28,778 nt of DNA, taken from the NCBI GenBank assembly GCA_037441385.1, contig JBBISH010000086.1, forward strand, positions 1 to 28,778, given 5' to 3'. Below are positions 1 to 26,452 of this stretch, piece by piece; position 1 is the stretch's first letter; every line of letters begins with the position of its first letter. Source of the DNA: Myxococcales bacterium. Its GTDB lineage: Bacteria; Myxococcota_A; UBA9042. The notes under the pieces were generated by a model, which worked only from the letters and a program-made list of their open reading frames with translations, did no database searches and was not told the origin of the DNA. Made by a program: the position numbers and the translations under genes.

Positions 1-140
1 CTGATACGAACCCCGTCTGATTCACGCCTGTACGGTTCCTCTGACCCGGTCTGCAACCGGCGAGAATCAGGCGGGGACCCCGGTTCGGGCCCGAAGAATT
101 GCCGAAGTTTTCGAGCCGATTTGGACGGAAACCGTATGAG
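1..140. repeat. Structured intergenic segment with nested inverted repeats (possible MITE/REP-like remnant)
   Basis: ccccgtctgattc (11-23) pairs with gaatcaggcgggg (64-76) with one G-T pair. Inner ccggt-ctgca-accgg hairpin at 46-60. Imperfect outer pair ctgatacg (1-8)/cgtatgag (133-140). The left border is at the window edge. Confidence 0.35.
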
Positions 141-279
141 CAGCAACGAGTTTTCGCCAGCGAGTGGTCCCGTTGCTCTGAACCGCGGAGATTCGTAATT
201 GGTGTTCTAGCCAGCTGGCGACGGCTTGTTCGGGCTAGCAAATGGGCTGAATTGGCACCAGGTGGCGCCCGCCGCGCCC

Positions 280-3200
280 CTACTTCGCCCAGCCCTGGAA
301 CCAACCCGGCAGCCACTTTTGGCCATCGGGCGCCGGGCTCGAACCGGGCACCGGGGCGCCGTTGGGCGGCGTTCCACACTCGCTGTTGGCCTTGCCGGGC
401 GAGCCTTTGTCCACGCCGTTCCAGGCAGTTGCCGACAGGCACCAGTTGGCGGGGCTGTCGTTCAGCACCGCCTCGGTCTTGCTCGCGCTCAACTGCACCG
501 AGGAGCCGGCCAGCTTGGTCCAGCCGTTGCTGCCCCAGGTGAATGCGACCTTGTCGATGCTCAAGCCCTTCCACTGCAACTCGACCGCGTCGGCGGCGCT
601 GTTCGACAGGGGGAAGCCGCTGCCCGTGTACACGTAGTTGGGCGTGATGCCGCCGTTGGCCTTGGGATCGGCCGAGGCCGCAAAGACCAGGATCGCGCCG
701 GGCGCGCAGGGTACCGACTTGCCCACCGTGAACTTCTCGGTCGCGGTGCCGCCAATCACGGTCAGGCCGTTGAGGTCCAGGTTCTTGGTGCTCACGTTCT
801 TGATCTCGAACCACTCGCCCGCGGGTTCGCTGATGCTGGGGTCGATCATCAGCTCGGTGATGACAAGGTCGCCCGCGATCGGCTCGCCGTTGGCCGATTC
901 GACCTGGCAAGTGGGGCTGCAGCCGTCGCCGGCGGCCGTGTTGCCGTCGTCGCAGGCCTCGGGCGGCTCTACGGTGCCGTTGCCGCAGACTGGGTCGGGC
1001 AGGTCTTGGCAGACGTCGCCCTTGCCATCGCCGTTGGTGTCCAGCTGATCCGGGTTGGCTTGGTACGGGCAGTTGTCGCACACGTCGCCCGCGCCGTCGC
1101 CGTCGCCGTCCTTTTGGTCGGCGTTGGGCTTGGTTGGGCAATTGTCGGCGGCGTCGAGCTTGCCGTCGCCGTCGCTGTCCTTGGGGCAGCTGGAATTGAC
1201 CTTGCCAGGCGTGCCCTTGTTGCCTGTGGTGTACGTCTCGCTGGCTAGGCACCACGAAGCGGCTGCGTCGTTGGCCACCGCGGTGAGCTTGCCCGGATCC
1301 AGCTCGAGCGCCACGCCGGCGGCCACCTTGGGCCAACCCGGCGCGTTGTACACGATGCTATCGATGATCGCGCCGCCGGCCTCGACCCGCACTTCCGTGA
1401 TCGAGGTGTTGGTCAAGTTCAGCTTGGGCGCCCACACCGGGCCCTCCAACTCGCCGTTCAGGCTGGGGGTGACGCTGCGCGCCAGCACCACGTACGCCCC
1501 CGGGAACATCGGCAGCGACGCATTTTGCGGCAGCACGGTGGTCGACGAACCTGTCTTGAGCGAAATGCCAGCCAATTCCACAATGTGCGTGCTCGCGTTG
1601 TACAGCTCGACCCACTCACCGCCCTCGTCGGTCACCGGCGAGGCCGCATCGGGCAGCAATTCGGAAATGACCAGATCGCCCACCAGGATGGCCGGCTCGC
1701 TGAAGCAAAGGGCGTTGCAGCCGTCGCCGTACAGCAAGTTGCCATCGTCGCAATCTTCTTTGGGCTCCAGCACGCCGTTGCCGCAGCCGGGTGGCTCGCA
1801 CGCGTCGCCCAGGCCGTCGCCGTCGCCATCGCTCTGGTCAAAGTTCGGGTCCGCCGGGCAGTTGTCGCACACGTCGCCCACGCCGTCGTTGTCGCCGTCG
1901 AGCTGGTTGGCGTTCTTGTCGTTCAGGCAGTTGTCCGTCTTGTCCGGGATGCCGTCTTTGTCTTCGTCCTGATCGCCGCCGATGCAGCTCGGGTTCGCTT
2001 TGCCCGGCGAGCCAAAATCCCCCAGGCCGTAGATGGCTTGCGCTTTGCACCACGCGCCCTTTTCGTCGTTGACGTCGGCTGTGAGCACCGTCGCGTCCAG
2101 GCTCAACGACTTGCCGGTCACCAGCGGCCAGCCGGTCCCGTAGGTCACCGCGTCCAGCAGCACGCCGGCCGAGCGGATCGACAACGTTGCCGCGGTGGAC
2201 GAGAGTACAATCTTACCATAGACATACAAGGGCTTGGGCAAGCCGCCGTTGGCCGTGGCGTCGGCGCTCACCGCCAGGATGCCGTACGACTTGGGCCCCA
2301 GCACGATCGGGTCCGGTCCCGCCACCGCGTGGGTGATCGGCTTGGCGGTGCCCGTCTGGATCACCAGGCCGTTCAAGGTGATCGGCGCGTTCGTGGTGTT
2401 GTAGATCTCGAACCACTCGCCCAGATCGTCGGCCACCAGCTTGGGATTCGTCATGATTTCGGTGATCACCAGGGTGCCGGGGGCGATGCTGGTCTCGATC
2501 TGGCACCAGGCGCTGCAGCCATCGCCCGACACCTTGTTGCCGTCGTCGCAAGCCTCGCCGTCGCCCACCGTCGCGTCGCCGCAGCCGGCGATGGGGCCTT
2601 CGCAGGCATCGCCCACGCCGTTGTTGTCGGCGTCGAGCTGAGTGGGGTTCGACACTTCCGGGCAGTTGTCCGTGCTGTCGGGCACACCGTCTTTGTCCTT
2701 GTCGGCCACGCAGACGTCGTTGAGTGCGCCGGGGGTGCCCTTGTCGCCGTCGCTCGCGATGGTGCTGACCGCGCCGCACCAGTTGTCGACGAGATCATTG
2801 TCCGTCGCATTCAAGTGATCGGGATGCAACGACAGCGCCACACCGTTCAGGTTCGGCCAGCCCTTGGTCACGTCGTAGGCCATGGCGTCGATGACGATGC
2901 CGTTGCTTTCTAGCGACACGCCGTCGATGGCGTTGGTGAGCGTCAGCGTCTTGGCCCAGGCCGCGGCGATCTTCACGCCACCGTTCAGGGTCGTGTCGGC
3001 GCTGGGGCCAAAGACGGCGTAGCCTTTGGCGGCGATGGAAGTGCCGGCGGGGACAGTGAAATACTCCTTGTCGCCCACGCTCTTGATGACCATGCCGCCC
3101 AGGTCATAGGCCTTGGCCGTGGTGTTGTAGACCTCGACCCACTCGCCGTTGGCGTCGGCGACTTTGCCGTTGCCGTACGGGTTGAACATGACTTCGGTGA

Positions 3201-3651: not shown

Positions 3652-3806
3652 GGCAACTCCTGCTGGGCGCATCGTGCAAGGCCCATGCGGCATAAGTGTA
3701 GTGATCGCGGCGCCTCTAGGCAACGAGAGCGCGGCGCGGCCGGGTTTGACACGGCTGCAGCCATGGGCACACTGGGGGCCAGAGCGGCTCGCTCGGAGAA
3801 CAAACG

Positions 3807-9689: not shown

Positions 9690-9773
9690 CCGTTGCGCTC
9701 GCCGCGGAACTCTTCGCACAAATTTGCGCGGCGTGCGTTGACAGCGGCCGCGTTTTTGACGACACAGCTTGAT

Positions 9774-11111
9774 GTGAACCTTGCCGCCCCCCTTTCGGTT
9801 CTGGGTTTGCGCGCGCCGTCCCAGTCGACGCGAGCGAGACGCGGATTTTTTCTCGCTTCTCTCGTTGCCGTTCTGCAACTTGGGGCATGCAAGGAGCAAG
9901 CCGCGACGCCGGTCGTCGCCGCGCCACCTGCCGAGGCCCCGGCGGCGATCGCGGGGGCTACTGCGCCTGCCGCCGACGCCAGCGCCGCCCCCGACGACGA
10001 AGAAGCCCTGCCGCGTGGCCCAGCCGTGGAGGTGCGGGTCGCCGACGATCCGGCCGCGCCCCTGGCGTATTTCCGCGGATTCCAAGGCGAACGTGGCGGC
10101 CAATCGGCACTTCTATACACGCGCACGCGCACAGGCCGCACCCCCACGACGATCGAAGATAGTTCCGTGGCCCTGCGCGGCGCCGACAAGGCCAATGGCG
10201 CACGCCGCGGCCCAGCTCAGCCGGCGCTGGGGACGCCCGTCCTGGTTTCGATCGGCGCCCAATGGTGCAAACCCTGCGGCGAAGAGCTGGGCGACGTGCT
10301 GGCACTGGCAGGCGAGATCGAGGCCAGCGCCGATCGCCCGCGGCTCTACATGGTGCTCGAGGGCACGCCGGACGAGTGGCCTCTTGCCGAGGTCCGCGAC
10401 GAGCTCTTGACCAAGCACGCCAAGTTCGCCAAGCGCAGCAAGCCGCTCGTGCCGGCCAACTGGGCAGAATTCCGCGCTGATTTGCAGAGCGCCTGGGGCG
10501 ACGCCATCGGCCGCTTGGGGGTGCTGGGCGGAACGGGCCCGGCCTCGTTGCCGGTCAATCTGCTGCTGGATGGTTGCGGGCATGTGCAAGCTGCCGCCAC
10601 TGGGTCCCTCAATTCGGCCAAGCGAGAGGCGTTTCGCAAACAACTGGCGAGGTTGCAGGGCTTTGCCTGTGCGCCGGCCCCGATGGCCGCGCCCCCCATC
10701 GCTCGTCCTGCCGTTGCGCGACCGCACACCAGCGAACCGGCCAAGGCGGCCGACCCAGGCAAGGGCAGTCTACCGCAGGGCAACGGCGACGGCCCCGCCA
10801 CCGGTCAAGAGGTTCCGGGCAAGGCGACCCACCCGGTGGATGCGCCAGCCAATCAGGGGCTACCCGAGCTCCCGCAAGGCAGCAAAAGGCCTGACCCGGC
10901 TGCTGAGCCCAAGGCGGACTCAAAGGCTGAGCCCAAGCCGGAACCCAAGGCGGAGCCCAAAGCGGAGCCCAAGCCGGAACCCAAGGCGGAGCCCAAGCCG
11001 GAACCGAAGGCGGAACCGAAAGCTGAGCCCAAGGCCAAGCCCGAGGCGAAGCCAGAGGCCAAAGGCGAGCCCAAGGGCAATGACAAACCCCGCGGCGACA
11101 ATCCGCAGTAG
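9774..11111 (+). CDS. TlpA/ResA-like thioredoxin-fold lipoprotein with a Pro/Ala linker and an (A/P)EPK-repeat tail
   Basis: RRGFFL plus hydrophobic stretch plus lipobox LGA-C; PVLVSIGAQWCKPCGEE active-site motif; SLPVNLLLDGCG cis-Pro strand. Start is uncertain (9693, 9774 or 9807). Confidence 0.75.
   Translation: MNLAAPLSVLGLRAPSQSTRARRGFFLASLVAVLQLGACKEQAATPVVAAPPAEAPAAIAGATAPAADASAAPDDEEALPRGPAVEVRVADDPAAPLAYFRGFQGERGGQSALLYTRTRTGRTPTTIEDSSVALRGADKANGARRGPAQPALGTPVLVSIGAQWCKPCGEELGDVLALAGEIEASADRPRLYMVLEGTPDEWPLAEVRDELLTKHAKFAKRSKPLVPANWAEFRADLQSAWGDAIGRLGVLGGTGPASLPVNLLLDGCGHVQAAATGSLNSAKREAFRKQLARLQGFACAPAPMAAPPIARPAVARPHTSEPAKAADPGKGSLPQGNGDGPATGQEVPGKATHPVDAPANQGLPELPQGSKRPDPAAEPKADSKAEPKPEPKAEPKAEPKPEPKAEPKPEPKAEPKAEPKAKPEAKPEAKGEPKGNDKPRGDNPQ
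10902..11075 (+). repeat. 12-nt coding tandem repeat encoding AEPK/PEPK/AKPE
   Basis: About 14 consecutive tetrapeptide units (gctgagcccaag, ccggaacccaag, gcggagcccaag and variants) with synonymous variation. Confidence 0.9.
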
Positions 11112-11129: not shown

Positions 11130-11468
11130 GTGACTGGTTTTGGATACCTATGCCCCGAATGTCTGGAGGTGCCCGCCGCGCAGTGCGCCTACCGCGGCTG
11201 CCCCCAACGGGGCATGGCCACCGCGACGGTTGCCAGCTTGACGGCAGGATCCGCAGATGCGACCCGCGCCGTGTCGCCAGGAAGCCCTTTGCCCAATCCG
11301 GGCTTGCCGGAACCCGGCCGGGCCGGCGACGCCTTGGCGACTCGCTTCGTCGACCCAGGCGTGGGCCCCCCGCCCGCCGCCAACCCGCCTGCCCCTGCGC
11401 CGGCATCCGTTCAAGCCGACGACGCGCTGGCCACGCGCTATGTTGGGCCGGACAAGAAGGGAGGCTGA
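11130..11468 (+). CDS. Small Zn-ribbon protein (Cx2Cx7Cx4C) with a disordered tail carrying three T-R-x-V motifs
   Basis: GYLCPECLEVPAAQCAYRGC at the N-terminus; DATRAV, DALATRFV and DALATRYV. Fills the gap between neighbours; its stop is 1 nt before the next ATG. Confidence 0.7.
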   Translation: MTGFGYLCPECLEVPAAQCAYRGCPQRGMATATVASLTAGSADATRAVSPGSPLPNPGLPEPGRAGDALATRFVDPGVGPPPAANPPAPAPASVQADDALATRYVGPDKKGG

Positions 11469-11469
11469 C

Positions 11470-12198
11470 ATGGCGAGTTTTGTGGGCAGCGGCGCCGCCA
11501 TCGGCCGCTCGGCCGCGATTGCCGCGTTGGGGCTGGGCGTTTTGGCCGTGCCAGGTCTGCCGGTCTTGGCCGCCGTCGCCGTTGCGGTGGTGGCCGGCCT
11601 GACGGCTGCGTGGTGGCTGGCCCTCGCTGGGCGCGCCCGCCTGGACAGTGTGGAGCTCCGCTTTGTGCCACCCGAATTGCCCACGATCGCGAGCCCTGCG
11701 CCCGCGGCGGCAGCCGCCGACGGGGGAGCGCCCACGGGCACCGAACGAATTGCCGCGGCTCCGGTCCCGCTGCCTACGGCCGCCCAGACCCATTTCCAGG
11801 CCACGCCGTCGGACGTGGTGACACTGGGGGCCAGCGCTGACCCGGCTTTTCCAAGCTGGCGCCTGCACTGGCAATTGCCCGACGGGCGCGAGGGCCTAGT
11901 GGTGCTGCCGGCGGGCGAGCGCACCGTCTTGGGGCGCCAGTCCGACTGCCAGATCATCGTCCAGCTGGACGAAGTCAGCCGCAATCACCTGATCTTCCAG
12001 GTCGCGCGTCAGAGCGTCCGCGTCACCGAGACGGGGTCTTCCAACGGCACCTGGCGGCGCTCGGCGGGCGACAGCAGCCACACCTTGTGGACCCGCTTGT
12101 CGGCCGGCGCTCCCCAGCCGCTCGCGGCCGGCGACCAGTTGCGCATTGCCGATCCTTGGGCCATCGTACTCACCCTGGAGAGTGTGGTTCGCGGCTGA
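11470..12198 (+). CDS. Membrane-anchored FHA-domain protein
   Basis: AGGGAGG RBS before ATG 11470; long N-terminal hydrophobic segment. FHA signature VLGR...CQI...VSRNH...GSSNGTW...GDQLRI with the pThr-binding G-R, S-x-x-H and N-G-T residues intact. Confidence 0.9.
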   Translation: MASFVGSGAAIGRSAAIAALGLGVLAVPGLPVLAAVAVAVVAGLTAAWWLALAGRARLDSVELRFVPPELPTIASPAPAAAAADGGAPTGTERIAAAPVPLPTAAQTHFQATPSDVVTLGASADPAFPSWRLHWQLPDGREGLVVLPAGERTVLGRQSDCQIIVQLDEVSRNHLIFQVARQSVRVTETGSSNGTWRRSAGDSSHTLWTRLSAGAPQPLAAGDQLRIADPWAIVLTLESVVRG

Positions 12199-12216: not shown

Positions 12217-13542
12217 GTGTTGTTTCGAATGCTTGCAATGCTGCGCTGGCTCGCCGTTCTGGGCTTGCTCCTGCTCGCGGGCGCCACCACGGCTGTGGCC
12301 GTGCCCCCTCCGCCTCCCAGTGGGCATCGCGCCTTTGACGCCATCGACGCTTCCGTCATGTTCACGCGGTGTTTGCCCGCCGGTCAGCCCTGGAATCGCC
12401 GGCTGACGGTCACCGACAAGGGCACGGGCCACCGGCTGAGCGAGGCCGAGATTCAGGCCGAAAAGCTGCGGGTTACGTTGGTGGTCAACGGCGTCGACAC
12501 GGATGTCAAGCAAGTGGGCGACGGCTTCGACTTCGACTGGGTCCCGGCGGCCAACGCCAAGAATTACACCGTGTCCGTCAAGCTGAGCACGGCGACGACC
12601 ACGGTGGCCGGCATTCCTCGCGACGTGTTTGCGGCCCCCGATACCCATGTGCAACTCCCCACCGAGCTTGCGATTTCGCCGGTCGAAGGGGGCTGCAAGT
12701 CCGATGCGCACTGTGTGCCGTTGGACCTGGGCAAGTCGGTGGGGTTGTGGCCAGGGCTGCAGCTCAACATTACCCGAAAAAAGCCAGCTAGTTCAGGCGG
12801 TTGGGCTGCAGCGCCCATGCACTTGCAGGTCGGCGGCAAGCTGATCCCCTTCGAGCGCGACAAGCCCGTCGAGCTGTCGTACCAACCCACCCAAACAGTG
12901 CAGGTCTGCTATGCGGCGCCGCGCTGCACCCAGCCGCCGGCCGACACCTCTGAAGTCATCGAGATCAAACCCGTTCACTTCTGCCTCGCCGACGCCGACG
13001 AGGCCTGCAAAAAGGAGCCCAGGGGTATTGGCTGCGATCGGCCGCGCTCCGCCAGCGTGGTCGTCAAGGCCGACGTCAAGCCGAACAGTTGGCTGGACTG
13101 CAACCTGTGGTGGATCCTCATCGTCGCGGGGGTACTCCTGTTCTTGTTCATCGTCGCCGGCCTCGTCACCCCCAACCAGTTCGCCTCGGCGGCGATGGTG
13201 CGGGTCGCCAACAACGATCGTCAGCTGCGGCGCGAACAGGGGCGGCCGCTGCGCCGCGAGCCCGGGGGCAAGCGCGGCTTCTACCGCACCGCCACCGTGT
13301 GCTTTACCGACATCGGCACCACGGTCAAGAAGTCGCAGGGCCACATCCTGATGCTCAAGGCCGGGCCCGACAAAGAAATTCAAATTCACCGCAAGGGCGC
13401 AACCCTAGAGCGGTTCGAGCGCAACGCTTGGCGGCAGGTCGATCCTGTCGCCACCGGCAAAGACGTGCTGACCGAGCGCACCCTGGTCAGCGGCGGGCTG
13501 TACCGCGTGAACAACACGTACTATTTCATCGTCGATTTCTAG
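12217..13542 (+). CDS. Single-pass membrane protein: signal peptide, Cys-rich beta-rich ectodomain, TM helix, basic cytoplasmic domain
   Basis: GAGGA before the GTG; signal LRWLAVLGLLLLAGATTAVA; 9 Cys before the TM LWWILIVAGVLLFLFIVAGLV; about 120-aa Arg/Lys-rich C-terminal domain ending YYFIVDF. Confidence 0.8.
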   Translation: MLFRMLAMLRWLAVLGLLLLAGATTAVAVPPPPPSGHRAFDAIDASVMFTRCLPAGQPWNRRLTVTDKGTGHRLSEAEIQAEKLRVTLVVNGVDTDVKQVGDGFDFDWVPAANAKNYTVSVKLSTATTTVAGIPRDVFAAPDTHVQLPTELAISPVEGGCKSDAHCVPLDLGKSVGLWPGLQLNITRKKPASSGGWAAAPMHLQVGGKLIPFERDKPVELSYQPTQTVQVCYAAPRCTQPPADTSEVIEIKPVHFCLADADEACKKEPRGIGCDRPRSASVVVKADVKPNSWLDCNLWWILIVAGVLLFLFIVAGLVTPNQFASAAMVRVANNDRQLRREQGRPLRREPGGKRGFYRTATVCFTDIGTTVKKSQGHILMLKAGPDKEIQIHRKGATLERFERNAWRQVDPVATGKDVLTERTLVSGGLYRVNNTYYFIVDF

Positions 13543-13579: not shown

Positions 13580-16500
13580 ATGGCCAACGAGTCCACTGCA
13601 CCGCAAAAGCCCGTCGCCCTGGGCTTCGACGACCTCAAGGGCGTGCCGCCTACGTTCTTCATCGGCATGGGCGGCTCGGGCGGCCGCGTCGTCGACGTGC
13701 TGGCGCAGCGCCTGAAAAGCGAGCCGACCTGGCCTAAGTTCCAAAAGCTCATCCACTTCTTGTGCGTGGACACCGACGCCAATGACCTAGCGCGCCTGGC
13801 CAAGCGGGTCGAGACCAGCAACATCTCGATCTCGGACAAGAAGCGCCGCATCGAGCTGCTGCGCGGCCGCATGGACCACGACGCCAACGAGCGCATCACC
13901 TCGTGGGTGCACCCCTGGTACGGCTTCCGCGACGTGGCGGGCAAGGGCGCTGGCCAGATCCGCTTGGAGTCGCGATTTTCGCTGCACTGTCAGATTGCCG
14001 ACGCACTGCCGGGCAACCTGCGCGACATCGTGGTCCGCAAGCTGCGCGAGTCGATGGACGCGCTGAACCCCAACCAGCAGCGCGGCGCCAACGTGCGCTT
14101 CTTCATCTACGGCTCGCTGGCCGGCGGCACCGGCTCGGGCGCTTCGCTGACCGCGGCGTACCTGGTGCGCAAACTGGCCGAAGACGCGGGCGTGCCGGCC
14201 GAAGTGTTCGGCATGTTCTTCTTGCCCAGCGTCTTTCGCGATCGAGTCGAGTCGGCGCTCGTCAGCAAGATCAACTCCAATGGTTACGCGGCCCTCAAAG
14301 AGATCGAGTGGTGCATGGAGATGCGCTACGACGGCGCGGGGCCGGGCGAGCTGGAGTACGTCTTTGACCCGCGTCGCACGGCTTCGACCAAGGTTGACCG
14401 GAAGCAGGACCGCGTGACCCGCGCGCCCTTTGACTGGGTCTATGTGGTCGACAAGCCCGAGAAGCTGGCGATCGAGCAGATCTACCAGGCGGCCGGCGAG
14501 TCGGCGTACCTGCAGCTGTTTTCGCCGATCATGGCCTTCCAGGATCGCGAGGGCGACAACTTTGCCCAGCTGCAGAGCGAGCCCAGCGACGGCTTCTTTG
14601 CCGTGCAGTACGGCTCGATGGGCTCGTCGGTGCTGGAATTCCCGCGCGAACGGCTGGTGCGCTACTTCGCCCGCCGCAAGACCGTGGAATTGGTCGAGCG
14701 GCTGGTGGTGGGCAAGCCGCCGACCGGCTCGGGCGTCGCCGACGACCTGGTGCTCAGCGGCCGCGAGTTCCTGGACCTGGCCGAGAGCGAGCAAAACCGC
14801 CGCATCGACGAGGCCTTCAAGCGCTTTGTCGAGTATGAAGCGCGGCAAGAGAGCGAGGCGGAAAAGCGCGGCATGTTCACGGACATCGCCGAGCTGCGGG
14901 TGGGCCAGACCAACCTGCTGGACGAGTTCCGCGCCCGCCTGAACGCCGAGATCGAGGGCCTGAAGTCCGAGGTGGTGATCGCCACCATCAACGCGCCCGC
15001 GATCACGCCGGAAAATCCGACGTTGAACCACGCGCGCGTCAACCTGGGCCGCGACTACAAGGCCGGCAAGCAGACCGTGGACAAGAAGGCGCAGATGCTG
15101 GCGCGCGACATCGCGTCGGGCCAGTACCTGAGCAAGTTCTTCCGGGATTTCAAGGCGTCGCCGCTGCAGCAGCGCTACTTCCTGGTGCGTTTGAACGAGC
15201 TGGCCCGCAACCAGGACCTGCGCACGGGCGTAGAGGAAGAGGACGCGTCGCTGCTCGAGTGGTGCTTCCTGCCTTCGTCCGATATCGACTCGGTGGCCTA
15301 CCTGGCGCGCAAGCCGCCGGAGCCGATCGAGTACGACGTGGACCTGCCCGAGGTGCGCAAGCGCATCAGCGCCGCCGAGGAGCGGCTGTCGACGGCGGCC
15401 AAGAAGCTGATCGGCAAAGAGAAGGCCTTTGACGAGGCCCGTATCTCGGCCGTGCGTGAGTTCCAGCGCTTGGAGCAGGCGGCGGGCGACGCGCTGGTCA
15501 TCGACTTCTGGCATCAGATCAACCGCGCCCTGCGGCAGCACTCCGAGAAGCGCGCGGATCTGTTCCGGGTCATCGCCAAGAAGGGCCTGAGCCAGGTCGA
15601 CCACCTGCGCGCCCAGGCCGAGAACTGCCGCAACCGCGGCGCGGCGGTGCCGGACATCGGCAAGACCGACGAGGATCTGGCGGAATTCCACCTGGGCAAC
15701 GAAGTGTTCCACGACGCCCGCAACAAGCTGCGCCAGTGGCACCTGGCCTACAAGGTGCTGGTCGAAGAGGACTTTGTGGTCGACACCGGCGAGGTGCTGG
15801 CCAAGGTCAACGAAGTGCTGGATCAGGCTGCGGCAGGCACAGGCAACACCGCGGGCGCGCAGAACAATTCCGACGACGTGTTGGCCGGCATCATCGACCG
15901 CATCGACAAGCAGATGCGCGAGAAAATGCAGCGCTTTGTCGACGTGGACAAGGGCATGAACCTGTTCAACGCCCTAGAGATGGAGATCCGCATGAGCCAG
16001 CTGGGCAATGCGGCGTGGATGACGGCCAAAGACTTGGAGAAGGTGGAGCTGAACGCCATCGAGCCGTACCTGAAGGACAAGCTGGGCTTTGTCGCCTCGA
16101 TGTCGGTGCCGCTGGCCCGGTTCGACGAAGCGGTCTTGGCCGGCGCCGGCAAGAAGCCCTATCGTCCGCGCTTCTACGGCGTGGATCACAAGCTGCTGGA
16201 CAAGTCGCCGGCGGTGGCGCGGGCGCTGCGCGATGCGGCCAGCGGCTTCTCGATGCTGGAAGACTGGAATTCGCACGACATTTTGGCGTTCTACCAGGCG
16301 ACCTTGGGCGTGCCGCTGTACGCGTGGCGCGACGTGCAGGACGATCTGGCCATCGCCTACGAGTTCGAGTCCAATGAGTCGGGCCGCGGCCACCCGATGC
16401 ATGTGGATTCCCGTTGGGAAAATCGCGGCTTCCACGACAATCCCACCTTGGGTATCCCCGGGCTGTCGCTGGGCGCGCGCCGCAAGTGGCAGGCCGAGAA

Positions 16501-16885
16501 GAAGGCCTACGAAGAGGAACTGGCCCGTAAGAAGCGCGCCGAAGAAGAGGCGATGCTGCGGCAAGCCTCGGCTTCGGCTGGGCAATTGGCGCGGGCGCTG
16601 GCGGCGGGCTTTGTCACCGAGCTCTACGGCGCCTGGAAGCTGTCGTACCGCGGCCGCGACTTTGAGCTGGGCACCGGCCTGGCCGAGAGTCTGCAGAAAT
16701 TCGCCGCGTTGCCCGATGCAGTGCGCGGTCCGGTCGATCGCGCGGCGGCCGAGACGCTGCAGAGCGAGCCCGGAAAGGTCGCGGATGTGCGCAACAAGCT
16801 GGACGACTGGCTGTTCGACGCCGGCTCCGAGGGCCGCACCGCGGACGAAAAAGCGATCGGTCTGCTGCAGGCGCAACTCAAGTAG
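13580..16885 (+). CDS. Tubulin/FtsZ-like GTPase of the FtsZl1 (Pfam Tubulin_2) family with a long helical C-terminal extension
   Basis: GAGGA RBS. FIGMGGSGG (T1), CVDTD (T2), GKGAGQIRLESR (T3), GSLAGGTGSG (tubulin signature, 14111-14140), FFLP, NGYAALKEIE, PFDWVYVVD; C-terminal FYQATLGVPL...AY...PMHVDSRW. Confidence 0.93.
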   Translation: MANESTAPQKPVALGFDDLKGVPPTFFIGMGGSGGRVVDVLAQRLKSEPTWPKFQKLIHFLCVDTDANDLARLAKRVETSNISISDKKRRIELLRGRMDHDANERITSWVHPWYGFRDVAGKGAGQIRLESRFSLHCQIADALPGNLRDIVVRKLRESMDALNPNQQRGANVRFFIYGSLAGGTGSGASLTAAYLVRKLAEDAGVPAEVFGMFFLPSVFRDRVESALVSKINSNGYAALKEIEWCMEMRYDGAGPGELEYVFDPRRTASTKVDRKQDRVTRAPFDWVYVVDKPEKLAIEQIYQAAGESAYLQLFSPIMAFQDREGDNFAQLQSEPSDGFFAVQYGSMGSSVLEFPRERLVRYFARRKTVELVERLVVGKPPTGSGVADDLVLSGREFLDLAESEQNRRIDEAFKRFVEYEARQESEAEKRGMFTDIAELRVGQTNLLDEFRARLNAEIEGLKSEVVIATINAPAITPENPTLNHARVNLGRDYKAGKQTVDKKAQMLARDIASGQYLSKFFRDFKASPLQQRYFLVRLNELARNQDLRTGVEEEDASLLEWCFLPSSDIDSVAYLARKPPEPIEYDVDLPEVRKRISAAEERLSTAAKKLIGKEKAFDEARISAVREFQRLEQAAGDALVIDFWHQINRALRQHSEKRADLFRVIAKKGLSQVDHLRAQAENCRNRGAAVPDIGKTDEDLAEFHLGNEVFHDARNKLRQWHLAYKVLVEEDFVVDTGEVLAKVNEVLDQAAAGTGNTAGAQNNSDDVLAGIIDRIDKQMREKMQRFVDVDKGMNLFNALEMEIRMSQLGNAAWMTAKDLEKVELNAIEPYLKDKLGFVASMSVPLARFDEAVLAGAGKKPYRPRFYGVDHKLLDKSPAVARALRDAASGFSMLEDWNSHDILAFYQATLGVPLYAWRDVQDDLAIAYEFESNESGRGHPMHVDSRWENRGFHDNPTLGIPGLSLGARRKWQAEKKAYEEELARKKRAEEEAMLRQASASAGQLARALAAGFVTELYGAWKLSYRGRDFELGTGLAESLQKFAALPDAVRGPVDRAAAETLQSEPGKVADVRNKLDDWLFDAGSEGRTADEKAIGLLQAQLK

Positions 16886-16918: not shown

Positions 16919-18904
16919 GTGAGCATTCCGGTCCAAGTCGCGGTCACTAGCGGGACCTTGCTGCCCGCCGTCGAAGAGGTCCAGGCCCGCCTGGGGACCA
17001 TTGGCGGCGCGCAGATGTTGTGGGTCTTGAGCGACTTGGAGCAGCCCGACGTGCCGCAACGGGCCGCGGCTCAAGTCCGCGCGATGCTGGGCGCGCGCCG
17101 GCACGAGGGCGGCTTTGCCCAGATCGTGCTGGCTCACGACGTGGCCGGGATGAACCACGCCCTGCAGGTGCTGCGCGGCGCCGAACCCGGCCGTACGCCC
17201 TGGGCGCTGGTAGTGATTGGCCTTTTTGAGGAAGGCGACGTGGTCGAGCCGTTGCCTGCCGGGGTTTCGTCGGTGCACGTGGTGCCAGCGGCGCTGGCCT
17301 ACCGCGAGCTGGGCTGGCGCGAACGCGAGCGATCGGCAGCCAACTTGTTGGGACTGCTGACGGATCTGGCGCGTTCGGACCGGGCGCGCGAGTCGTGGCA
17401 GCAGTGGGTGGCGACCTACGCCGGTGTGCGCGTCACCCTGGCGCAGGCGGCGCGCTTCCAAGCGCCCATGGTGCAGCGCGTTTTGGCTCGGCGGCTCGCC
17501 TCGCGAGTCGTCGAGCGCATGATCGACGCCTTGGGGCAGGGCCAGCGCCCACAGACCGCTCCGCGTCTGGCCGATCCACCGGCCGCGCCGGACCACGATG
17601 TGCAAGAAGCGCTGAGCCAGCGCGCCCACGAGCTGGGCGAAAAGGTGGCCGTGCGCATCGTGGGTGCCGACGACGACGTGCAACCGCTTCCTGCCGAAGA
17701 GGTTTTGCACCAGCGCGCGCGCCGCGAGGTCCGCGAACTGCCGCAGAAGCTGGAAGACGTCTTGAAGCGCCACGGCAGCGACCTGCGCGACAAGGCGCTG
17801 GCGTGGCAAGGCGAACTGCGGCAATGGGTCGATGCCGCGCTGGAGCAGGCGAGTTTTGCGGCGCTGCCGGGAGTCATCGCCAGGCTGGAAGCGTGGCTAG
17901 AGCGCCTGGCGCTGCCAATGCACGACGGTAGCCAGCACGGGCCGCGGCAGGCCCTGCGATTGGACCCGCCGGACTCGGCCCAGCTGCGTGCAGCGGTGCA
18001 GGCGCTCGAAGCCGAGCTGGCCGCTCACGACGACTCGCACTTGCTGTTTGGCGGCTGGTCGCTGGCCATCGGCACTACGGTGGGGCTAGCCACCGCGGCA
18101 GGGCTGCAGGCCTTGGGCACCCATGCGCCACTGGCCGCTGGCGGCGTGGGCACTGCGGTAGTGGGCGCGGGCGCTGGGATTTCGGCGGTCCGGTCGCGGC
18201 TCGCCCAAGCTCAACTGCGGCGCCTGCTCGCCCAAGAGCAGCTGGCGCGCCAGGCCTACCGGGCGGCGTGGACCAAACTCATCGAGCGGCAGATCGCCGA
18301 CATCGGTGCGGTCTTGAACGAGCGCATGGTGCGGTTCGCCAGCGAGGTGGTGCAAGGCGAGTTGGTGTGGCTGCGGTCCGTGCGCGACACGCTCAGCGAT
18401 TTGTACCAGCAGTATCAGAAGCCCGAGCGGCTGCGCATGGGCTCGGACTCGGCGTTTGAGTCCGACATCCGCCTGCCCGAAGAGTTCTACGCCAAGGCCG
18501 AGCAAGTGGCCGACGCGTCGCCCTTGTTTGCCGAATACGAAGGGCAGCTGGCCCAGTCCAACTGGCGTCAGCGCCTGGGCTTCATGAACAGCGACGCGCT
18601 GCTGAAGCAATGCGAACTGGCCTACGGCAGCTTCCGCGAGCAAATCCCCTTTGATCAGCGCGCCGAGCTGCGCGACGTGGCTCTGGGACCCACGGGCGTG
18701 GCCATTCGGCAAATGCTCGACCGGCTGGCCGACTACCTGCCGCCCGAGTTTGGCGCCGACACCATGGTGGTGCTGCCTTCGCGGCTGTCGGACGCGGTGC
18801 CCGATGACCGGGTGGGCGCGCTGCAGATGCACCTTGGCGTGAGCGACGTGTTCGTGGCGGTATCGCGGCCGGCGGCGCCGCGCAGCGACTGGGCGGGGCA
18901 GTAG
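16919..18904 (+). CDS. Helical protein with a central Gly/Ala-rich TM hairpin; probable inactive paralog of the adjacent tubulin-like protein
   Basis: AGGGAG RBS before the GTG. Hydrophobic hairpin LLFGGWSLAIGTTVGLATAAGL...AAGGVGTAVVGAGAGISAV flanked by coiled-coil-like helices. By-eye colinear similarity to the 13580 protein but without its Gly-rich GTP loops. The CDS is secure; the paralogy is inferred. Confidence 0.65.
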   Translation: MSIPVQVAVTSGTLLPAVEEVQARLGTIGGAQMLWVLSDLEQPDVPQRAAAQVRAMLGARRHEGGFAQIVLAHDVAGMNHALQVLRGAEPGRTPWALVVIGLFEEGDVVEPLPAGVSSVHVVPAALAYRELGWRERERSAANLLGLLTDLARSDRARESWQQWVATYAGVRVTLAQAARFQAPMVQRVLARRLASRVVERMIDALGQGQRPQTAPRLADPPAAPDHDVQEALSQRAHELGEKVAVRIVGADDDVQPLPAEEVLHQRARREVRELPQKLEDVLKRHGSDLRDKALAWQGELRQWVDAALEQASFAALPGVIARLEAWLERLALPMHDGSQHGPRQALRLDPPDSAQLRAAVQALEAELAAHDDSHLLFGGWSLAIGTTVGLATAAGLQALGTHAPLAAGGVGTAVVGAGAGISAVRSRLAQAQLRRLLAQEQLARQAYRAAWTKLIERQIADIGAVLNERMVRFASEVVQGELVWLRSVRDTLSDLYQQYQKPERLRMGSDSAFESDIRLPEEFYAKAEQVADASPLFAEYEGQLAQSNWRQRLGFMNSDALLKQCELAYGSFREQIPFDQRAELRDVALGPTGVAIRQMLDRLADYLPPEFGADTMVVLPSRLSDAVPDDRVGALQMHLGVSDVFVAVSRPAAPRSDWAGQ

Positions 18905-18905
18905 G

Positions 18906-21728
18906 ATGGCGGCAGCGACCTTGCTCATGATTGTGGCTGGAATTTCCGGCGTGCTCATCGTCGCTTGGCTGCTGGCGGTCCAGGCTGGTCCCGACTGGTT
19001 GCGCCCAGGCCACGGCCCGCTCTGGTACTTCTCGGCGGCCGCGACGCTGCTTGTGGGTGGGGCGCTTGCGGCGCTCCAGCAAGTGGGCGTGCTGCCCGAG
19101 CACCGCATTGGCGGCCTGCCGGGTACCCTTAACGCCATGATCCTGGCCGAGATTTTGGTGATCGTGCTGTTCCCAGTGATGTGGTTGGCGTTTTCGCAAC
19201 TGCACAAGCCCGGGCCGCGTGAAGCCCCAATTCCGCGCCTATTCATCTACTTGGGCATCGCGCCCGACGGATCGCCGCTACTGGAACTGCGTTGGATGTT
19301 GCGCACGCTGGCCGTGGTTGGTCTGCTGGTGGCCACGCTGGCTATCCTGGGCATGGACCTGTCGTCGGTGATCGGCAGGGGGCCGCGGCAGCACACGCTT
19401 TGGGCCTTTGGTTATGCGGCGTTACTTGGCGTGTTGTTCGGCTCAACCCATCCCGTGCGGCCGGTGCCGGCGGCCCGGCGTGCGCCTTCGAACGAGGCAG
19501 TCTTGCCCAAGGCCCCGTTCGACAAGCGCATCGACGCGCTGCATCGCTGGCTGGGCAGTCCGGTCGAGGCGGAGTCGCTGCAGGAAGTGCGCCGCGACCG
19601 CAAGGGCCCGCGCCAAACCGACCAGCGCTTTGGGCTGGATCTCTATCCGTTCCAGGCGCGCCTGCTCGACGAACTGAGCGATGCGCCGGCCGTGGCCCTG
19701 GCGGGACCGGCGGGGACGGGGCGCACCACTGCGGCGTTGCTGCGGGCGATCGACATGGCGCTGGCTACGGGTGCCTCGTGCGCAGTCATCACGCCCACGC
19801 GCGACGCCGTCCGCCAGAATCTGCTCCACGCGCGGGCTCTTTGCGAGCGTATCAGCGCCGGCGCGGCTGTGACCTTGGACGACGGGGTGCCGCCGCGCTC
19901 GGCCGACCTGTGGCTGGTCTCGCTCGACGACTTGGAACGCTTTTTGGACGAGACCATCGATCCGGCTGCGCTGCCGATCATCGGCCGGCTGAAGCTGGTG
20001 GTGGTGGACGACCTGGACCAGCTGTACGGTCCTGAAGTGGCGCGCCTGCGCTTTGTGGTCTACCGCCTGATGGCCCTGCGGGGCGCGGCTCAGCCGCAGT
20101 TGCTGCTCGCCGGCAATCTCTCTCCGCAAGTGCTGCAGCAGGTTGCCGAACGCGTTGCGACGGGCACCGTGCGGGTGGTGGCCACTGCAGGCGAAAATGA
20201 TGCCAGCGGTGCCGCTTCGCGGGCCGTGCGCCGCTTCGTGGTCGACCCGTCGCGCGTCGATCACAAGTCCACCTCGACCTTTGGCCTGCTGGGCATCCGC
20301 GATGGCTACGAACGGCTGGTCACTGAGGTGCCCGACGCGTCCATGCGCTTGAACGCCGCGCTGCTGGGCGATCCGTGGTCGCCGTGGCCGCCGCCCGACC
20401 AGAGCCAGCCCGACCAGCCCGCCGAGGTGCTGTTGGCGCGGGTGGGTCCGCGCTCGGCGTGGCACGTGCTGGGGCATCGGCGCTACTACCCCGAAGCCGC
20501 GGCACCCGCGCACGAGTACCTGCTGTTTGCCGACGATCCCCTGAGTCAGTTGCTGGTGGGCCAGTTCCGCGATCGCCATAGCTGGTGGCCCACGTGGTAC
20601 GACACCTCTCGCTTTCCGCGTATCCTTTCTGCGGTGCCCGGCGGCAGTGCCACGCCGCAAGGCCTGTTGACCCAGGCGCGCGCCCACCTCCGGGCGGCGC
20701 TGGACAAGGGGTTTTGCGACGTCGAGCGGCTGCGACAGGTGTTCTCGCCCGAAGTGGCCGATCAAGTCCTGGCCAGCTTGGACAATTCGCGCAGCTTCGA
20801 GCGCTTTGAAGCGTGGCGACCCAATCCGGCCGATCCCAAGAAGCCGCAAATCGTCCAGCTGTGCCGTGCCCAAGGGGCGGCAACGGGGGACCGCAGCGCC
20901 ACCTACGAGACCGCGGAACTGCGCGACCCGTCGGTGGGTTTGACGTTCAAGGTCCCGGCGCCGCTGCTCGATGTCGACTTCTACGACGGTGCCATTCTGC
21001 AGCGCGCCGGCCGGCGCTACAAAGTCGTCTCTGACCCGCGCCAACCCAAGCAGCGTCAGTTGCAGGTCGAGTCGTCGGCCATGACGGCCACGCCGATCCG
21101 CGCCATGCAATTCAAGCGCCACGGCAGCGGGCCGATGGACGTCCGGTTCCAGCGCTACGGCGGCCAGAAGGGGCTGGAGACTGTCCGCTGCGCGGTGCAG
21201 CTGCAATTGACGCACCACGGCGTGCACTTCTTTGGCCACACCCGCACGCCGGGCGCCACGGGTCGCACGGACTCCCTGCAGCGCCTCCACGAACAGATGC
21301 TGCCGCAACCCCTGACGTCGCAGGGTTTTGTCACCCGCGCGTGGGTGGTCTGCCCGCCCGACGCGGACGAGGTGGTGCTGCATACACTGACCCACGTGCT
21401 GCGCGACTGCCTGGACTACTTCTTCTTGGGCGCCAGCGACTTCATCGGGGTCGGCTACGAGATGGACTTGGGCGGCAAGGCCGGCATCGTGTTCTACGAC
21501 CGCCACCCCGAGGGCCTGGGCTGCCTGGACGACATCGACGACGCCAAGGACTTGCAGGCGATCCTGGCGGCGGCGCGCGAGATCCTGGCCGGCTGCGACT
21601 GCGAGTCGTCGTGTGCCAAGTGCTGCCGCTCGGTGGGCTGCACGCGCCGCCCGCACAACCACGACCTGGACCGCAAGCGCACGGTGGTGGTGCTCGACGC
21701 GCTGCTCAGCCGCGGGAGGGTCGGTTGA
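18906..21728 (+). CDS. Membrane-anchored, motif-degenerate MrfA/Hrq1-type SF2 helicase with a C-terminal DUF1998 Zn-binding domain
   Basis: About 5 N-terminal TM segments. Q-motif LYPFQ, Walker A GPAGTGRT, motif Ia TPTRD, motif II LVVVDDLD, FADDPL. DUF1998 pattern LHTLTHVL...IVFYDRHPEGLG...AREILAGCDCESSCAKC. Confidence 0.85.
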   Translation: MAAATLLMIVAGISGVLIVAWLLAVQAGPDWLRPGHGPLWYFSAAATLLVGGALAALQQVGVLPEHRIGGLPGTLNAMILAEILVIVLFPVMWLAFSQLHKPGPREAPIPRLFIYLGIAPDGSPLLELRWMLRTLAVVGLLVATLAILGMDLSSVIGRGPRQHTLWAFGYAALLGVLFGSTHPVRPVPAARRAPSNEAVLPKAPFDKRIDALHRWLGSPVEAESLQEVRRDRKGPRQTDQRFGLDLYPFQARLLDELSDAPAVALAGPAGTGRTTAALLRAIDMALATGASCAVITPTRDAVRQNLLHARALCERISAGAAVTLDDGVPPRSADLWLVSLDDLERFLDETIDPAALPIIGRLKLVVVDDLDQLYGPEVARLRFVVYRLMALRGAAQPQLLLAGNLSPQVLQQVAERVATGTVRVVATAGENDASGAASRAVRRFVVDPSRVDHKSTSTFGLLGIRDGYERLVTEVPDASMRLNAALLGDPWSPWPPPDQSQPDQPAEVLLARVGPRSAWHVLGHRRYYPEAAAPAHEYLLFADDPLSQLLVGQFRDRHSWWPTWYDTSRFPRILSAVPGGSATPQGLLTQARAHLRAALDKGFCDVERLRQVFSPEVADQVLASLDNSRSFERFEAWRPNPADPKKPQIVQLCRAQGAATGDRSATYETAELRDPSVGLTFKVPAPLLDVDFYDGAILQRAGRRYKVVSDPRQPKQRQLQVESSAMTATPIRAMQFKRHGSGPMDVRFQRYGGQKGLETVRCAVQLQLTHHGVHFFGHTRTPGATGRTDSLQRLHEQMLPQPLTSQGFVTRAWVVCPPDADEVVLHTLTHVLRDCLDYFFLGASDFIGVGYEMDLGGKAGIVFYDRHPEGLGCLDDIDDAKDLQAILAAAREILAGCDCESSCAKCCRSVGCTRRPHNHDLDRKRTVVVLDALLSRGRVG

Positions 21729-22852
21729 TCAGTCTGAACCGCAACGACGTGATCTTGGCCGGGGCGCCCCTGCCGGGTTCTGCCCCCGCCGTGGTGCAGC
21801 CCGCGCGTTGCCAGGGTGCGCAGGCGCTGGCCAAGTCGTACCCGATCCCCGTCGACCCGGCGCAAGCTGGCGCGTGGCTCCAGGCCGAGGCGTTTGCCAC
21901 GCAGAAGGTCCAGCACGTGTGCGTGCCCAAGGTGCTGGGCAGCTGGCAGGGTCAAGATGGCACTGCGCATTTGATCCTGCAGCGGCCGGCCGGTCGCCGC
22001 TGGGACGAAATCGTGCGCATCGGTCAGCAACGCCACAGCTACATGGCTGCGCGCGCCTGGGACGAGGCGACCCGCCACGTGGTGCGATCGCTGGCCCATT
22101 GCATCGAAACGGCGCATTTTTCGGGTGTTGCCCACGGCAACTTGGCGCCGGACAGCGTGTGGGTCGACCTGACCGCCATGGGCGAACTGGACATCAAAGT
22201 GGTCGATTTCTTGGGCAGTACCCCGCTGGTGCCGGGGCCGCGCCTGCGTTTTGCCGCGCCCGAGCAACTGGCTGGCCAGGCGGCCGACGCCCGCACCGAT
22301 GTGTACCGCCTTGCGCTGTTCGTGTATTTCTCGCTGACCGGCACCACGCCGTGGCCCACCGACGATCTGGCTGCCGCTCGCACGGCGCGGCTGGCTCCCG
22401 TGGATCGCGTGCCCGACGAGCGCGCGGCCGCCGCTTGGGCGCTGGTGTCCAAGTGGCCCGAGGTGGCCCGCACCCTGCAAGTGGGACTGCAGGCCGATCC
22501 CAACAAGCGCCCGCAGACCATTGCACAATTCGTCAGTCTGCTGGGCTTGGGGTGGGCGCTGCCCGAGCCGCGGCGCAGCATGGACGTGGGTTACGCTGTG
22601 GCGGGCGCACTCGCGATGCTGGCGGCCGTAGCGGTGTCTTGGCCTGCGGAAGATAGCCGTTTGACGCGGGCCCTGCTCGATCGCCAACCGTTGGCTGCCT
22701 GCTCGGCGCAACTACCGGTACTGGCTCAGCAAGTCTGCGCCAAATACGGTGCCAGCCGTCCGCAGTGCCAGCAGGCCCTGACGTTCGTGCTGGGCCGCGA
22801 AGAATGTCCCAACCGTATCAAGACGCTGCGCGCCTGCTTGGGCGAGCCGTGA
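21725..22852 (+). CDS. Transmembrane Ser/Thr pseudokinase with a small Cys-rich C-terminal domain
   Basis: The TTG start overlaps the helicase TGA (TTGA) and follows GGGAGG. Hanks-type motifs ALAK, QAEA..QKVQH, HGNLAPDS (for HRDLKPxN), VVDFL (for DFG), FAAPEQ, DARTDVY, DPNKRP. TM VGYAVAGALAMLAAVAVSW; 5 Cys in the tail. Confidence 0.85.
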   Translation: MISLNRNDVILAGAPLPGSAPAVVQPARCQGAQALAKSYPIPVDPAQAGAWLQAEAFATQKVQHVCVPKVLGSWQGQDGTAHLILQRPAGRRWDEIVRIGQQRHSYMAARAWDEATRHVVRSLAHCIETAHFSGVAHGNLAPDSVWVDLTAMGELDIKVVDFLGSTPLVPGPRLRFAAPEQLAGQAADARTDVYRLALFVYFSLTGTTPWPTDDLAAARTARLAPVDRVPDERAAAAWALVSKWPEVARTLQVGLQADPNKRPQTIAQFVSLLGLGWALPEPRRSMDVGYAVAGALAMLAAVAVSWPAEDSRLTRALLDRQPLAACSAQLPVLAQQVCAKYGASRPQCQQALTFVLGREECPNRIKTLRACLGEP

Positions 22853-22883: not shown

Positions 22884-24287
22884 ATGACCGTTGCCAAACT
22901 CATTGAGTACATCCTGGTGTTCTCGCTGGTGCTCATCTCGGGCCTGGGCATGGGCTTGGGCATGAGCGCGAGCCAGCGCCACCACGAACTCAGCATCGGC
23001 CTGGACACCGGGGTGCCGTCGTCGTGTGCCGCGCTGTCCAAGGGCCACGGCGACTCGTGCAAAGGCGCGTTGACCAGCGAAGCTGGCAAGGTGCTGGGTG
23101 TGCCCATCGCCAACTGGGGCATGGCCACCATGGGCATCGCCTTTGCGGCTGCGCTCGTCTTTGCCGGGGCGCTGAGCGTGGGAGCGTGGCAGGTGGCCGC
23201 GCACGTCTTCTCGCTGCTGGTGTTGCTCGCGCTCATCGACTTGGGCGGGACGTTGACCTACTTGTACATCGGCCTGATCCAGATGGGCACCAAGTGTGCG
23301 ATGTGCTTGGCGATGCACACGGCCAACGCCGCATTTTGCCTGGTGGTCGGCTTGGCGTGGACCAACATGGGCGACCGGATGCGCGACCTGGCGCGGACCC
23401 AAGGGCCCGCCTGGAAACGGCAGGTGGCGGCGACGGTGGCGCTGGGCGTGGGCTTTTGGTTCATCGTCAGCGTGGGCACGGACTTCTACTTCACCGAGCA
23501 GCAACGGCGCCTGCACAAGAAGCGCACCGACGGCGCCGAGCTGATTCGCGAGCGCGGCGAGGTGATGCTGGCTTGCCCGGCCAAAGACTGCATGGCGTCG
23601 CTGCAGTACGCGACGGCGGACCTGCCGCCCGACGACGCCTCGCTGGTGCTGGCCAAGGCGGCGCCAGGCCGTCAGACCCTGGTCGAGATGCTCGATATGT
23701 CGTGCCCGCACTGCCGCCACGAGTACAAAGAGCGCATGTCGATGCTCTACCACCGGCTGCTGGCCGCGCCGGATGGCACGGGCGCGCGGCTGCTGCTGTG
23801 GCCGGCCTCGAATGAATGCAACCCCGAGTACGGCGGCCAGAAGCTCCCCAACTGCGAAGCCAACGCGGCGCTGGTGTGCGCCTGGCAGGCTGGTCCAGAT
23901 CAAGGGCTGGCCTACGCCGACGAAGAAGCCAGTCACGCCCACGAGCAGGTCACCTTCGACCGGCCGGCCTGGCTCAAATCCAAGGCGGGCGCCGCGGCCG
24001 AGCAGTGCTTCCAGCGCGAAGTCTCGGCTGGCTTCCCCACCCTGAAGCGCCACGTCCAGGCGGCGGTCAAGCTGCGCGAGGTCGCCCGGGGCAAAAGCGC
24101 CGAGTGCCGCACGGGCCTGGACGCCGGCGGCAAGCAAATCGACGCTGGCGTCTTGTACTGGTGCTTCACGGGCACGCCCAGCTACGCGGTGTTCGGCGAC
24201 CGCGGCAGCGCGCCCGGTCCCGATCAACGGCTCCAGGCCGCACAAGCCTTTGATAAATGGCCGTTCTTGGCGGGTTGCCTGAAGTAG
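22884..24287 (+). CDS. Vitamin K epoxide reductase (VKOR)-DsbA/thioredoxin fusion
   Basis: VKOR loop Cys pair SSC...DSCKGALTS, then VLGVPIANWG and a CAMC redox motif within about 5 TMs. C-terminal DsbA-like domain EMLDMSCPHC...ECNP...CEA...GTPS. Confidence 0.9.
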   Translation: MTVAKLIEYILVFSLVLISGLGMGLGMSASQRHHELSIGLDTGVPSSCAALSKGHGDSCKGALTSEAGKVLGVPIANWGMATMGIAFAAALVFAGALSVGAWQVAAHVFSLLVLLALIDLGGTLTYLYIGLIQMGTKCAMCLAMHTANAAFCLVVGLAWTNMGDRMRDLARTQGPAWKRQVAATVALGVGFWFIVSVGTDFYFTEQQRRLHKKRTDGAELIRERGEVMLACPAKDCMASLQYATADLPPDDASLVLAKAAPGRQTLVEMLDMSCPHCRHEYKERMSMLYHRLLAAPDGTGARLLLWPASNECNPEYGGQKLPNCEANAALVCAWQAGPDQGLAYADEEASHAHEQVTFDRPAWLKSKAGAAAEQCFQREVSAGFPTLKRHVQAAVKLREVARGKSAECRTGLDAGGKQIDAGVLYWCFTGTPSYAVFGDRGSAPGPDQRLQAAQAFDKWPFLAGCLK

Positions 24288-26083: not shown

Positions 26084-26452
26084 CTACTTGCCCTGCCAGT
26101 CGCGCAGAGCCTGGACCGCCTGCTCCAGGGCCGCCTCCAGCGTCGCACCCGTCCAGGCTCCGGCCACGCTGCCGCCTGGCTCGGTCACTACGCAGCAGGG
26201 CAGGGTAGCGCGACCGTCCCCCACGCCCAGGGCGCGCGCCACGGCGCCATCGCGGTCTTGGGCCCTGTCCACGCACGTAAGCGCGGCCAGGTTGCCCACC
26301 CGAGTCTGAATGGGATCGCAGTTGCAGGTGCCTGGGCTCAGCGCCAGCAGCCACCACTGCCCGGCCGGCGGGCCGAGCGGCCGACGATCCACCGCAAGTG
26401 GCGGCAGTGGATCGCCAGGCCGCAACAGCCAAGCCCAGTCCGTTGCTAGCAT
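26084..26452 (-). CDS. Small degenerate redoxin/AhpC-TSA-like protein (122 aa)
   Basis: The ATG overlaps the upstream TAA (TAATG at 26454-26450). LRPGDPLPP...GQWWLLALSPGTCNC...DRDGAVARALGV...LPCCVVTEPGGSV matches the redoxin strand/helix pattern. Confidence 0.6.
   Translation of the reverse strand: MLATDWAWLLRPGDPLPPLAVDRRPLGPPAGQWWLLALSPGTCNCDPIQTRVGNLAALTCVDRAQDRDGAVARALGVGDGRATLPCCVVTEPGGSVAGAWTGATLEAALEQAVQALRDWQGK

Follow-up and report, generated by a model that had tools for sequence, protein, structure and literature searches.

What does the gene that directly follows a tubulin-like gene in a myxobacterial operon encode? We addressed this question in a contig of a Myxococcales bacterium (JBBISH010000086.1, assembly GCA_037441385.1; its full 28,778 nucleotides are called the window here), where a gene of the FtsZl1 family (FtsZ-like 1; Pfam Tubulin_2, PF13809) is followed by a gene for a 661-amino-acid protein, hereafter Q (16919..18904, plus strand). 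The open reading frame of Q has a GTG start at 16919, preceded by GGGAG, and a TAG stop at 18904; it begins 33 nt past the stop of the tubulin gene and the next ATG comes 1 nt past its own stop. Q matches nothing in Pfam, NCBIfam or PADLOC, and searches of PDB sequences with Q or with alignments of it returned nothing useful. PF13809 itself is matched neither by Q, nor by the 29-member alignment of its family, nor by 16 entries for distant partners. Homologs number 12 in a collection clustered at 90% and 19 among representatives at 50% (E ≤ 0.001), and a third search with the Q alignment gained no further protein. The original prediction, made from the letters and their translations, read Q as an inactive tubulin paralog carrying a membrane hairpin. 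Our analysis upholds this reading through motif loss, a tubulin-fold model, a chain of profiles and a hydrophobic hairpin: Q is very probably a dead, diverged sister of the adjoining FtsZl1, so that the unannotated gene after FtsZl1 now has an identity.

The comparison starts from the neighbour, which looks active. This protein of 1101 amino acids (13580..16885, plus strand) matches Tubulin_2 with E = 1e-48 and has intact T1 and T4 loops; it thus falls under the definition of FtsZl1, whereas Q does not. In its signature loop SLAGGTGSG (14114..14140), the S, the A and GGTGSG are invariant in 39 of 39 sequences. Asp326 and Asn327 in helix H8 (14555..14560), kept in 38 and in all 39 of them respectively, form a candidate catalytic pair, a role presumed by analogy with FtsZ and tubulin. 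We examined 65 loci, i.e., 60 hand-picked from the Tubulin_2 listing in favour of long contigs and five relatives carrying Q; in 49 of them the tubulin belongs to the subfamily of the window neighbour. These tubulins retain DT, GAGQIRxE and SxAGGTGSG together with the Asp-Asn pair of H8.

The genes that follow them, called partners here, have lost these motifs. The T4 loop is present in 38 of 38 adjacent tubulins and in none of the 38 partners, the GxGGxG pattern in 37 of the tubulins and again in no partner, and the GGGTG(S/T)G-type signature loop is missing from Q and from every partner. The predicted loss of the Gly-rich GTP loops is thereby borne out. In the model of Q, residues 1-209 (16919..17545) form a shrunken tubulin head running from S1 to H9 without the T1, T3 and T4 glycine loops; these element labels are our own assignment, from the order of the elements and tubulin nomenclature. 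The peptide AQIVLAHDVAG (17117..17149) would correspond to strand S4 and the site of SLAGGTGSG in the active copy. At the H7/H8 junction, where the Asp-Asn pair of the active copy is absent, Q carries Arg152 (17372..17374), an arginine conserved in 27 of the 29 close relatives and found in 15 of 18 distant partners. Because the GTP motifs are lost, Q is predicted not to bind GTP; with the candidate catalytic pair missing too, it probably neither hydrolyses GTP nor activates a GTPase. Lacking the signature loop and the Pfam match, it is a derived paralog that stands outside FtsZl1 as defined.

How, then, can a protein without these motifs be tied to tubulin? An iterated profile of Q recruits the gene after the tubulin in 38 of the 49 subfamily loci after four rounds and in 42 after six, and in none of the 16 loci with more distant tubulins. 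The seven misses comprise two split operons, a contig end, a partner in two pieces and three partners of one group, which as a profile does match, at 99.4%. Out of 1,145 sequences from all frames, the profile picks up nothing but partner genes and two fragments of partners, joined in rounds 5-6 by five tubulins. We then used A4, an alignment of 26 distant partners that excludes the tubulins and the close family of Q, as an intermediate. A4 matches the Q family at 98.9% (E 2e-17, 526 columns, starting at residue 111) and the tubulin family at 95.9% (E 5.6e-9, 194 columns), while reversed controls of a chain of this type, in its script version, stay below 1%. The distant partners also keep a remnant of T1, which aligns to the first strand and loop of the tubulins (86%). 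As the sequence link to the intermediates begins only at residue 111, residues 1-110 of Q rest on the structure model. The best-preserved sequence trace of tubulin in Q is the S7-H9 motif (residues 175-207; 17441..17539), whose direct match (VLARR/YFARR) reaches P = 0.002 once relatives are added, against 0.4 for the reversed control. From the two-step chain and this direct motif, we conclude that the head of FtsZl1 and Q share descent.

The colinear matches by eye on which the original prediction was built fared unequally. All the quoted peptides are present; on their own they lie within chance, and three of the five are recovered in register when relatives are added. The VLARR/YFARR match is one of them, and VSSVHVV/FDWVYVV reappears in the same register through the intermediates. 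The register of AQIVLAHDVAG with VRFFIYGSLAGG returns as the top N-terminal profile match, at an E-value of merely 0.25. The first two matches (IPVQVAV, MLWVLSD) are consistent with the strand order of both models.

The models also predict a tubulin fold with a split C-terminal domain in both proteins. In FtsZl1, a stalk of about 480 residues separates the head from a displaced S8-S10 (residues 861-911; 16160..16312), and FtsZ (2vaw) matches the model over residues 18..911 onto 7..316. The model of Q is arranged likewise: a helical stalk (residues 210-607; 17546..18739) is inserted in the C-terminal domain, and the S8-S10 end follows (residues 608-652; 18740..18874) in the order strand-helix-strand-strand (strand 614-620, helix 621-626, strands 635-640 and 644-651). 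Matches to FtsZ structures extend to residue 651 of Q and residue 316 of FtsZ, these being ranges and not residue pairs. The model of Q thus contains the FtsZ/tubulin superfamily's N-terminal nucleotide-binding domain fold plus, as read from the ranges, its C-terminal alpha/beta domain, as well as the long helical region after the head that is a feature of FtsZl1. Past the hairpin described below, the stalk of Q aligns with the tubulin stalk beyond residue 614 (P = 0.003; reversed, 0.55). FtsZl1 has a further C-terminal extension (about 915-1101) and Q has none. In the passages of Makarova and Koonin (2010, PMC2875224) on FtsZl1, its C-terminal region is reported without similarity to tubulin C-terminal domains, whereas both of our models contain this domain, split by the stalk; the part of PMC9871819 on Tubulin_2 proteins likewise describes them without the FtsZ_C and Tubulin_C Pfam domains. 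With such a domain predicted in both proteins, normal protofilament contacts become plausible.

Several results weigh against this kinship. BLASTP between Q and its neighbour gives no significant match (the best, VLARR/YFARR, has E = 1.7). Narrow profiles of the Q and tubulin families (29 versus 53 sequences) score 0.7% over the whole length, 0.2% for the N-terminal parts alone and 1.3% for the C-terminal parts alone, and profiles of the C-terminal domain match weakly (E 0.03). The first half of the Q stalk does not align with the tubulin stalk (E 0.43). The fold evidence comes from a single model built from 29 sequences, with an aligner that outputs ranges rather than residue pairs. Direct comparison alone would therefore leave the kinship unproven. 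One could then suppose that the head of Q is an unrelated Rossmann-like domain, made to resemble tubulin by convergence or by modelling bias. The lack of direct sequence significance, an identity of 5-15% between the Q model and tubulin-family chains, and a search of the model with Foldseek alone, which gave helical proteins and zero tubulin among the matches listed, would fit such a domain. We nevertheless regard this as very improbable and largely refuted: the original prediction was to fall if neither a tubulin-like fold nor a profile similarity to the neighbour appeared, and both the fold matches and the profile chain were found.

What distinguishes Q from its active neighbour, beyond the dead head, is a Gly/Ala-rich hydrophobic hairpin in the stalk (residues 375-424; 18041..18190), predicted to be a membrane anchor. 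A 19-residue hydrophobicity of at least 1.6 is reached in 35 of 38 partners (past residue 250) versus 2 of 38 tubulins (past residue 400). Two observations speak on the other side: the hairpin of Q itself is moderately hydrophobic, with 19-residue Kyte-Doolittle maxima of 1.41 and 1.48 that fall short of this threshold, and DSSP assigns residues 373-500 of the model to one continuous helix in which the turn is not resolved. The hairpin does lie in the helical region, where it had been placed, and the active copy indeed has no transmembrane hairpin; however, it is not bare at this place, since it has a short basic/amphipathic stalk tip, and many tubulins carry such a short basic/hydrophobic (amphipathic) tip at the apparently equivalent turn of the stalk.

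This layout had been compared to that of dynamin-like proteins (DLPs), and the comparison holds for the layout only. The stalk of Q, with its putative membrane-binding tip, gives a similar outline. The paired DLP1 and DLP2 of Campylobacter (Liu et al. 2018, PMC6104087), in the parts of that paper that present them, are likewise paralogs that share an operon; they combine an NTPase-fold head with a helical stalk, contact the membrane and hetero-oligomerise. On the other hand, dynamin-like proteins have another GTPase fold: a P-loop (TRAFAC) head was not found in Q, whose head matches tubulin and no Pfam family, and the Foldseek rows for MxA, Mgm1 and BDLP have template modelling (TM) scores below 0.2.

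Could Q simply be a decaying duplicate without function? Its rate of evolution exceeds that of the tubulin (tree length ratio 1.6), and the partner gene is in two pieces at two loci (L072 and L112). However, against an ortholog of 88% identity, the ratio of nonsynonymous to synonymous substitution rates (dN/dS) of Q is 0.097 overall (656 codons) and 0.05-0.23 by region; in the same comparison, it is 0.050 for the tubulin and 0.052 for the helicase-like gene. The reading frames are intact in close relatives and the partner is kept across the phylum. As Q is under purifying selection, decay is refuted, and we give it hardly any credence.

The partner also follows the tubulin across genomes. Among 401 genomes of the phylum, 99 have a Tubulin_2 match, 9 a full-length match to the Q family and 53 a match to A4, and comparison of the listings places all 62 partner-carrying genomes within these 99; roughly 15% of the genomes sampled thus carry the FtsZl1-partner pair. 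This co-occurrence arises partly by construction, because this sample also supplied A4 and related genomes do not count as independent. Its informative part is the absence of the partner from the other 302 genomes, those without Tubulin_2, where three short weak hairpin matches are all that was found. They belong to four such matches (G391, G325, G156 and G290; 19-23 bits, hairpin region) that were excluded from the count. A canonical FtsZ is encoded elsewhere in the genome of Q.

The gene that usually comes after Q suggests another partner. It encodes a membrane-anchored DEAD/MZB helicase-like protein with altered Walker motifs (18906..21728, plus strand). In 33 of 37 loci across the phylum, the partner is followed by a gene with 3-7 predicted N-terminal membrane segments, and in 29 of these 33 that gene matches the window helicase at E ≤ 0.01 (38-sequence set). 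Moreover, at four split loci of one clade (L017, L018, L020 and L021), Q has no upstream tubulin and still keeps its usual downstream helicase, kinase and VKOR genes, the L018 stretch being too short to reveal them; this also counts against a tie to FtsZl1. Q could then be a dead tubulin paralog serving as a membrane scaffold or adaptor, with the helicase-like membrane protein as its main partner and FtsZl1 contacted indirectly or via the stalks. We hold this to be unlikely: the three split genomes that could be checked (G224, G299 and G314) retain a Tubulin_2 gene on another contig, the absence from the 302 genomes just described points to FtsZl1, and a single rearrangement accounts for the split loci. 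It is also compatible with the explanation that we favour.

According to this explanation, Q would pair with the soluble GTPase FtsZl1 and in this way hold it at the membrane. In FtsZ and tubulin, the H7/H8 face covers the nucleotide of the next subunit. Q would lay its own H7/H8 face, which has the conserved arginine and no Asp-Asn pair, against the GTP face of FtsZl1, and may thus act as a membrane-fixed, non-hydrolysing cap or seed; the membrane would then be the place where assemblies begin or stop. These assemblies may sit beside the helicase-like membrane protein, under the control of the FHA, kinase and phosphatase proteins. We find this anchoring mechanism, the simplest role for Q, somewhat probable as a whole. 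It agrees with the original idea of Q as an anchor or nucleator for polymers of the active copy, the polymerisation of FtsZl1 being itself putative. A bolder version, which we put forward tentatively and think rather less than even, is an obligate tubulin heterodimer with a helical arm of about 400-480 residues inside each C-terminal domain, one ending in an amphipathic tip and the other in a transmembrane hairpin. It would perform tubulin-powered membrane remodelling, converged on the dynamin layout, with the arginine of Q holding the GTP of its partner as a membrane-fixed cap or nucleator.

Paralogous heads with unequal catalytic roles are also found in alpha/beta-tubulin, in BtubA/B, in the Asgard AtubA/B and in gamma-tubulin. 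In these subunits the signature loop is intact, and they are soluble. Unlike these heterodimers and caps, Q lacks the signature loop and has a stalk and a hairpin.

A quite different role would be that of a membrane effector in a conflict (anti-phage) system, where triggering of FtsZl1 would let the hairpin insert and open a pore or lesion. Alpha-pore-forming proteins make up most of the top Foldseek rows of Q (E 3e-4 to 1e-3), although these matches have TM scores of at most 0.16 and root-mean-square deviations above 33. FtsZl1 genes on plasmids adjoin ZorA/ZorB-like, WYL and BrxL genes, the helicase has a weak DruE match, and the distribution of Tubulin_2, given above, is patchy. The sections of Kaur et al. 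(2020, PMC7159879) on GAP1-N2 systems place tubulin genes in such conflict systems; in firmicutes, a pair of genes encoding tubulin plus coiled-coil proteins lies next to vWA genes. The second tubulin copy is not termed inactive or membrane-anchored in those sections, and the GAP1/TRAFAC GTPase genes of these systems were not found in a Pfam scan of 13 open reading frames of the window, among them the main genes of the operon, which has a helicase-like gene instead. PADLOC matches neither Q, nor the tubulin, nor two distant partners, and the congruent trees and the gene order, stable within families, look more like vertical inheritance. We therefore judge a pore-forming effector distinctly improbable.

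The FtsZl1 operons themselves are not new. The passages of Makarova and Koonin cited above describe operons of FtsZl1 with vWA genes; the window neighbour is a member of this FtsZl1 family, and its relatives show the same cast of vWA, kinase, FHA and membrane proteins. Their tables place a large, often membrane-associated, uncharacterised gene directly after FtsZl1 (B1, B3 and B7, and an unnamed one in Plesiocystis). Those passages do not identify it as a tubulin paralog, and B1, B3 and B7 would be candidates for the family of Q. In the literature searched, where subscription papers were mostly outside reach, we found no description of an inactive membrane-anchored FtsZl1 paralog and no experimental study of FtsZl1 systems, predicted in 2010. 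Q is likely part of an unstudied myxobacterial machine, in which it would bind the active copy to the cell membrane or cap it there. If this is true, the pairing of an active tubulin with a membrane-inserted pseudo-tubulin would represent a novel mode of membrane attachment for a tubulin polymer, and Arg152, Asp326/Asn327 and the hairpin are candidates for its test.

The pair lies in a conserved block on the plus strand. Upstream are an FHA-domain membrane protein (11257..12198, start uncertain) and, directly before the tubulin, a membrane protein with two hydrophobic segments (12217..13542), where relatives often have vWA or PP2C. Upstream genes with one or other of these domains occur in several loci; vWA is found in none of the 13 window proteins and in five of nine upstream genes of relatives (four at E 0.0005 or better, one at E 0.0007). 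After the helicase-like gene come a protein-kinase-like gene with HGN replacing HRD (21725..22852, start uncertain) and a VKOR-family membrane protein (22884..24287) closing the block. The order FHA, membrane protein, tubulin, Q, helicase-like, kinase and VKOR is kept in close relatives, contigs permitting, and in G146; a VKOR match was not seen in G109.

Several features of these and other genes may be added. In the helicase-like protein, Walker A reads GTGRT and Walker B reads DDLD; its relatives vary (K or R at Walker A; DDVE or DELH at Walker B), and a Cys cluster is kept in many. The kinase has HGNLAP for HRDLKP in this genus, with HND in more distant relatives, and from its sequence is likely a pseudokinase. 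At the head of the block lies a gene for a protein (9693-11111) that has a WCKPC motif and a tail of KAEP-type repeats; kept in some relatives, it is thioredoxin-like by motif alone and has no Pfam match. Large Cys-rich repeat proteins, of a kind that we take to be common in myxobacteria, are encoded on the minus strand at 280-3816 and 26452-28647.

At other FtsZl1 loci, one partner family (L073, L079, L080, L111-L123) reaches 1330-1470 amino acids, with about 500 extra residues in its N-terminal half. At L086, L087 and L089-L091, distant tubulins are followed by proteins of about 670-1100 amino acids with two hydrophobic segments (a hairpin), which the partner profile does not match. Hsp70-like genes lie immediately downstream of distant tubulin genes at L075 and L081. 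Searches of atlas features returned, as a lead only, unnamed clusters and one cluster with Tubulin_2 on 17% of its members (0.84 and 0.92). On plasmids, the gene after FtsZl1 has a hairpin in Azospirillum (L126, 9977-18892), where a multi-pass membrane protein follows, and opens like the tubulin first strand, without a hairpin, in Allomeiothermus (L127, 8974-13767); neither gene gives a significant score. In a Deinococcus plasmid (L128, 7565-12680), the genes that come after FtsZl1 are ZorA-like and ZorB-like, in place of a dead paralog. Finally, a 9.8-kb record filed as a phage (MT836542.1) encodes an FtsZl1-like head with 25% identity.
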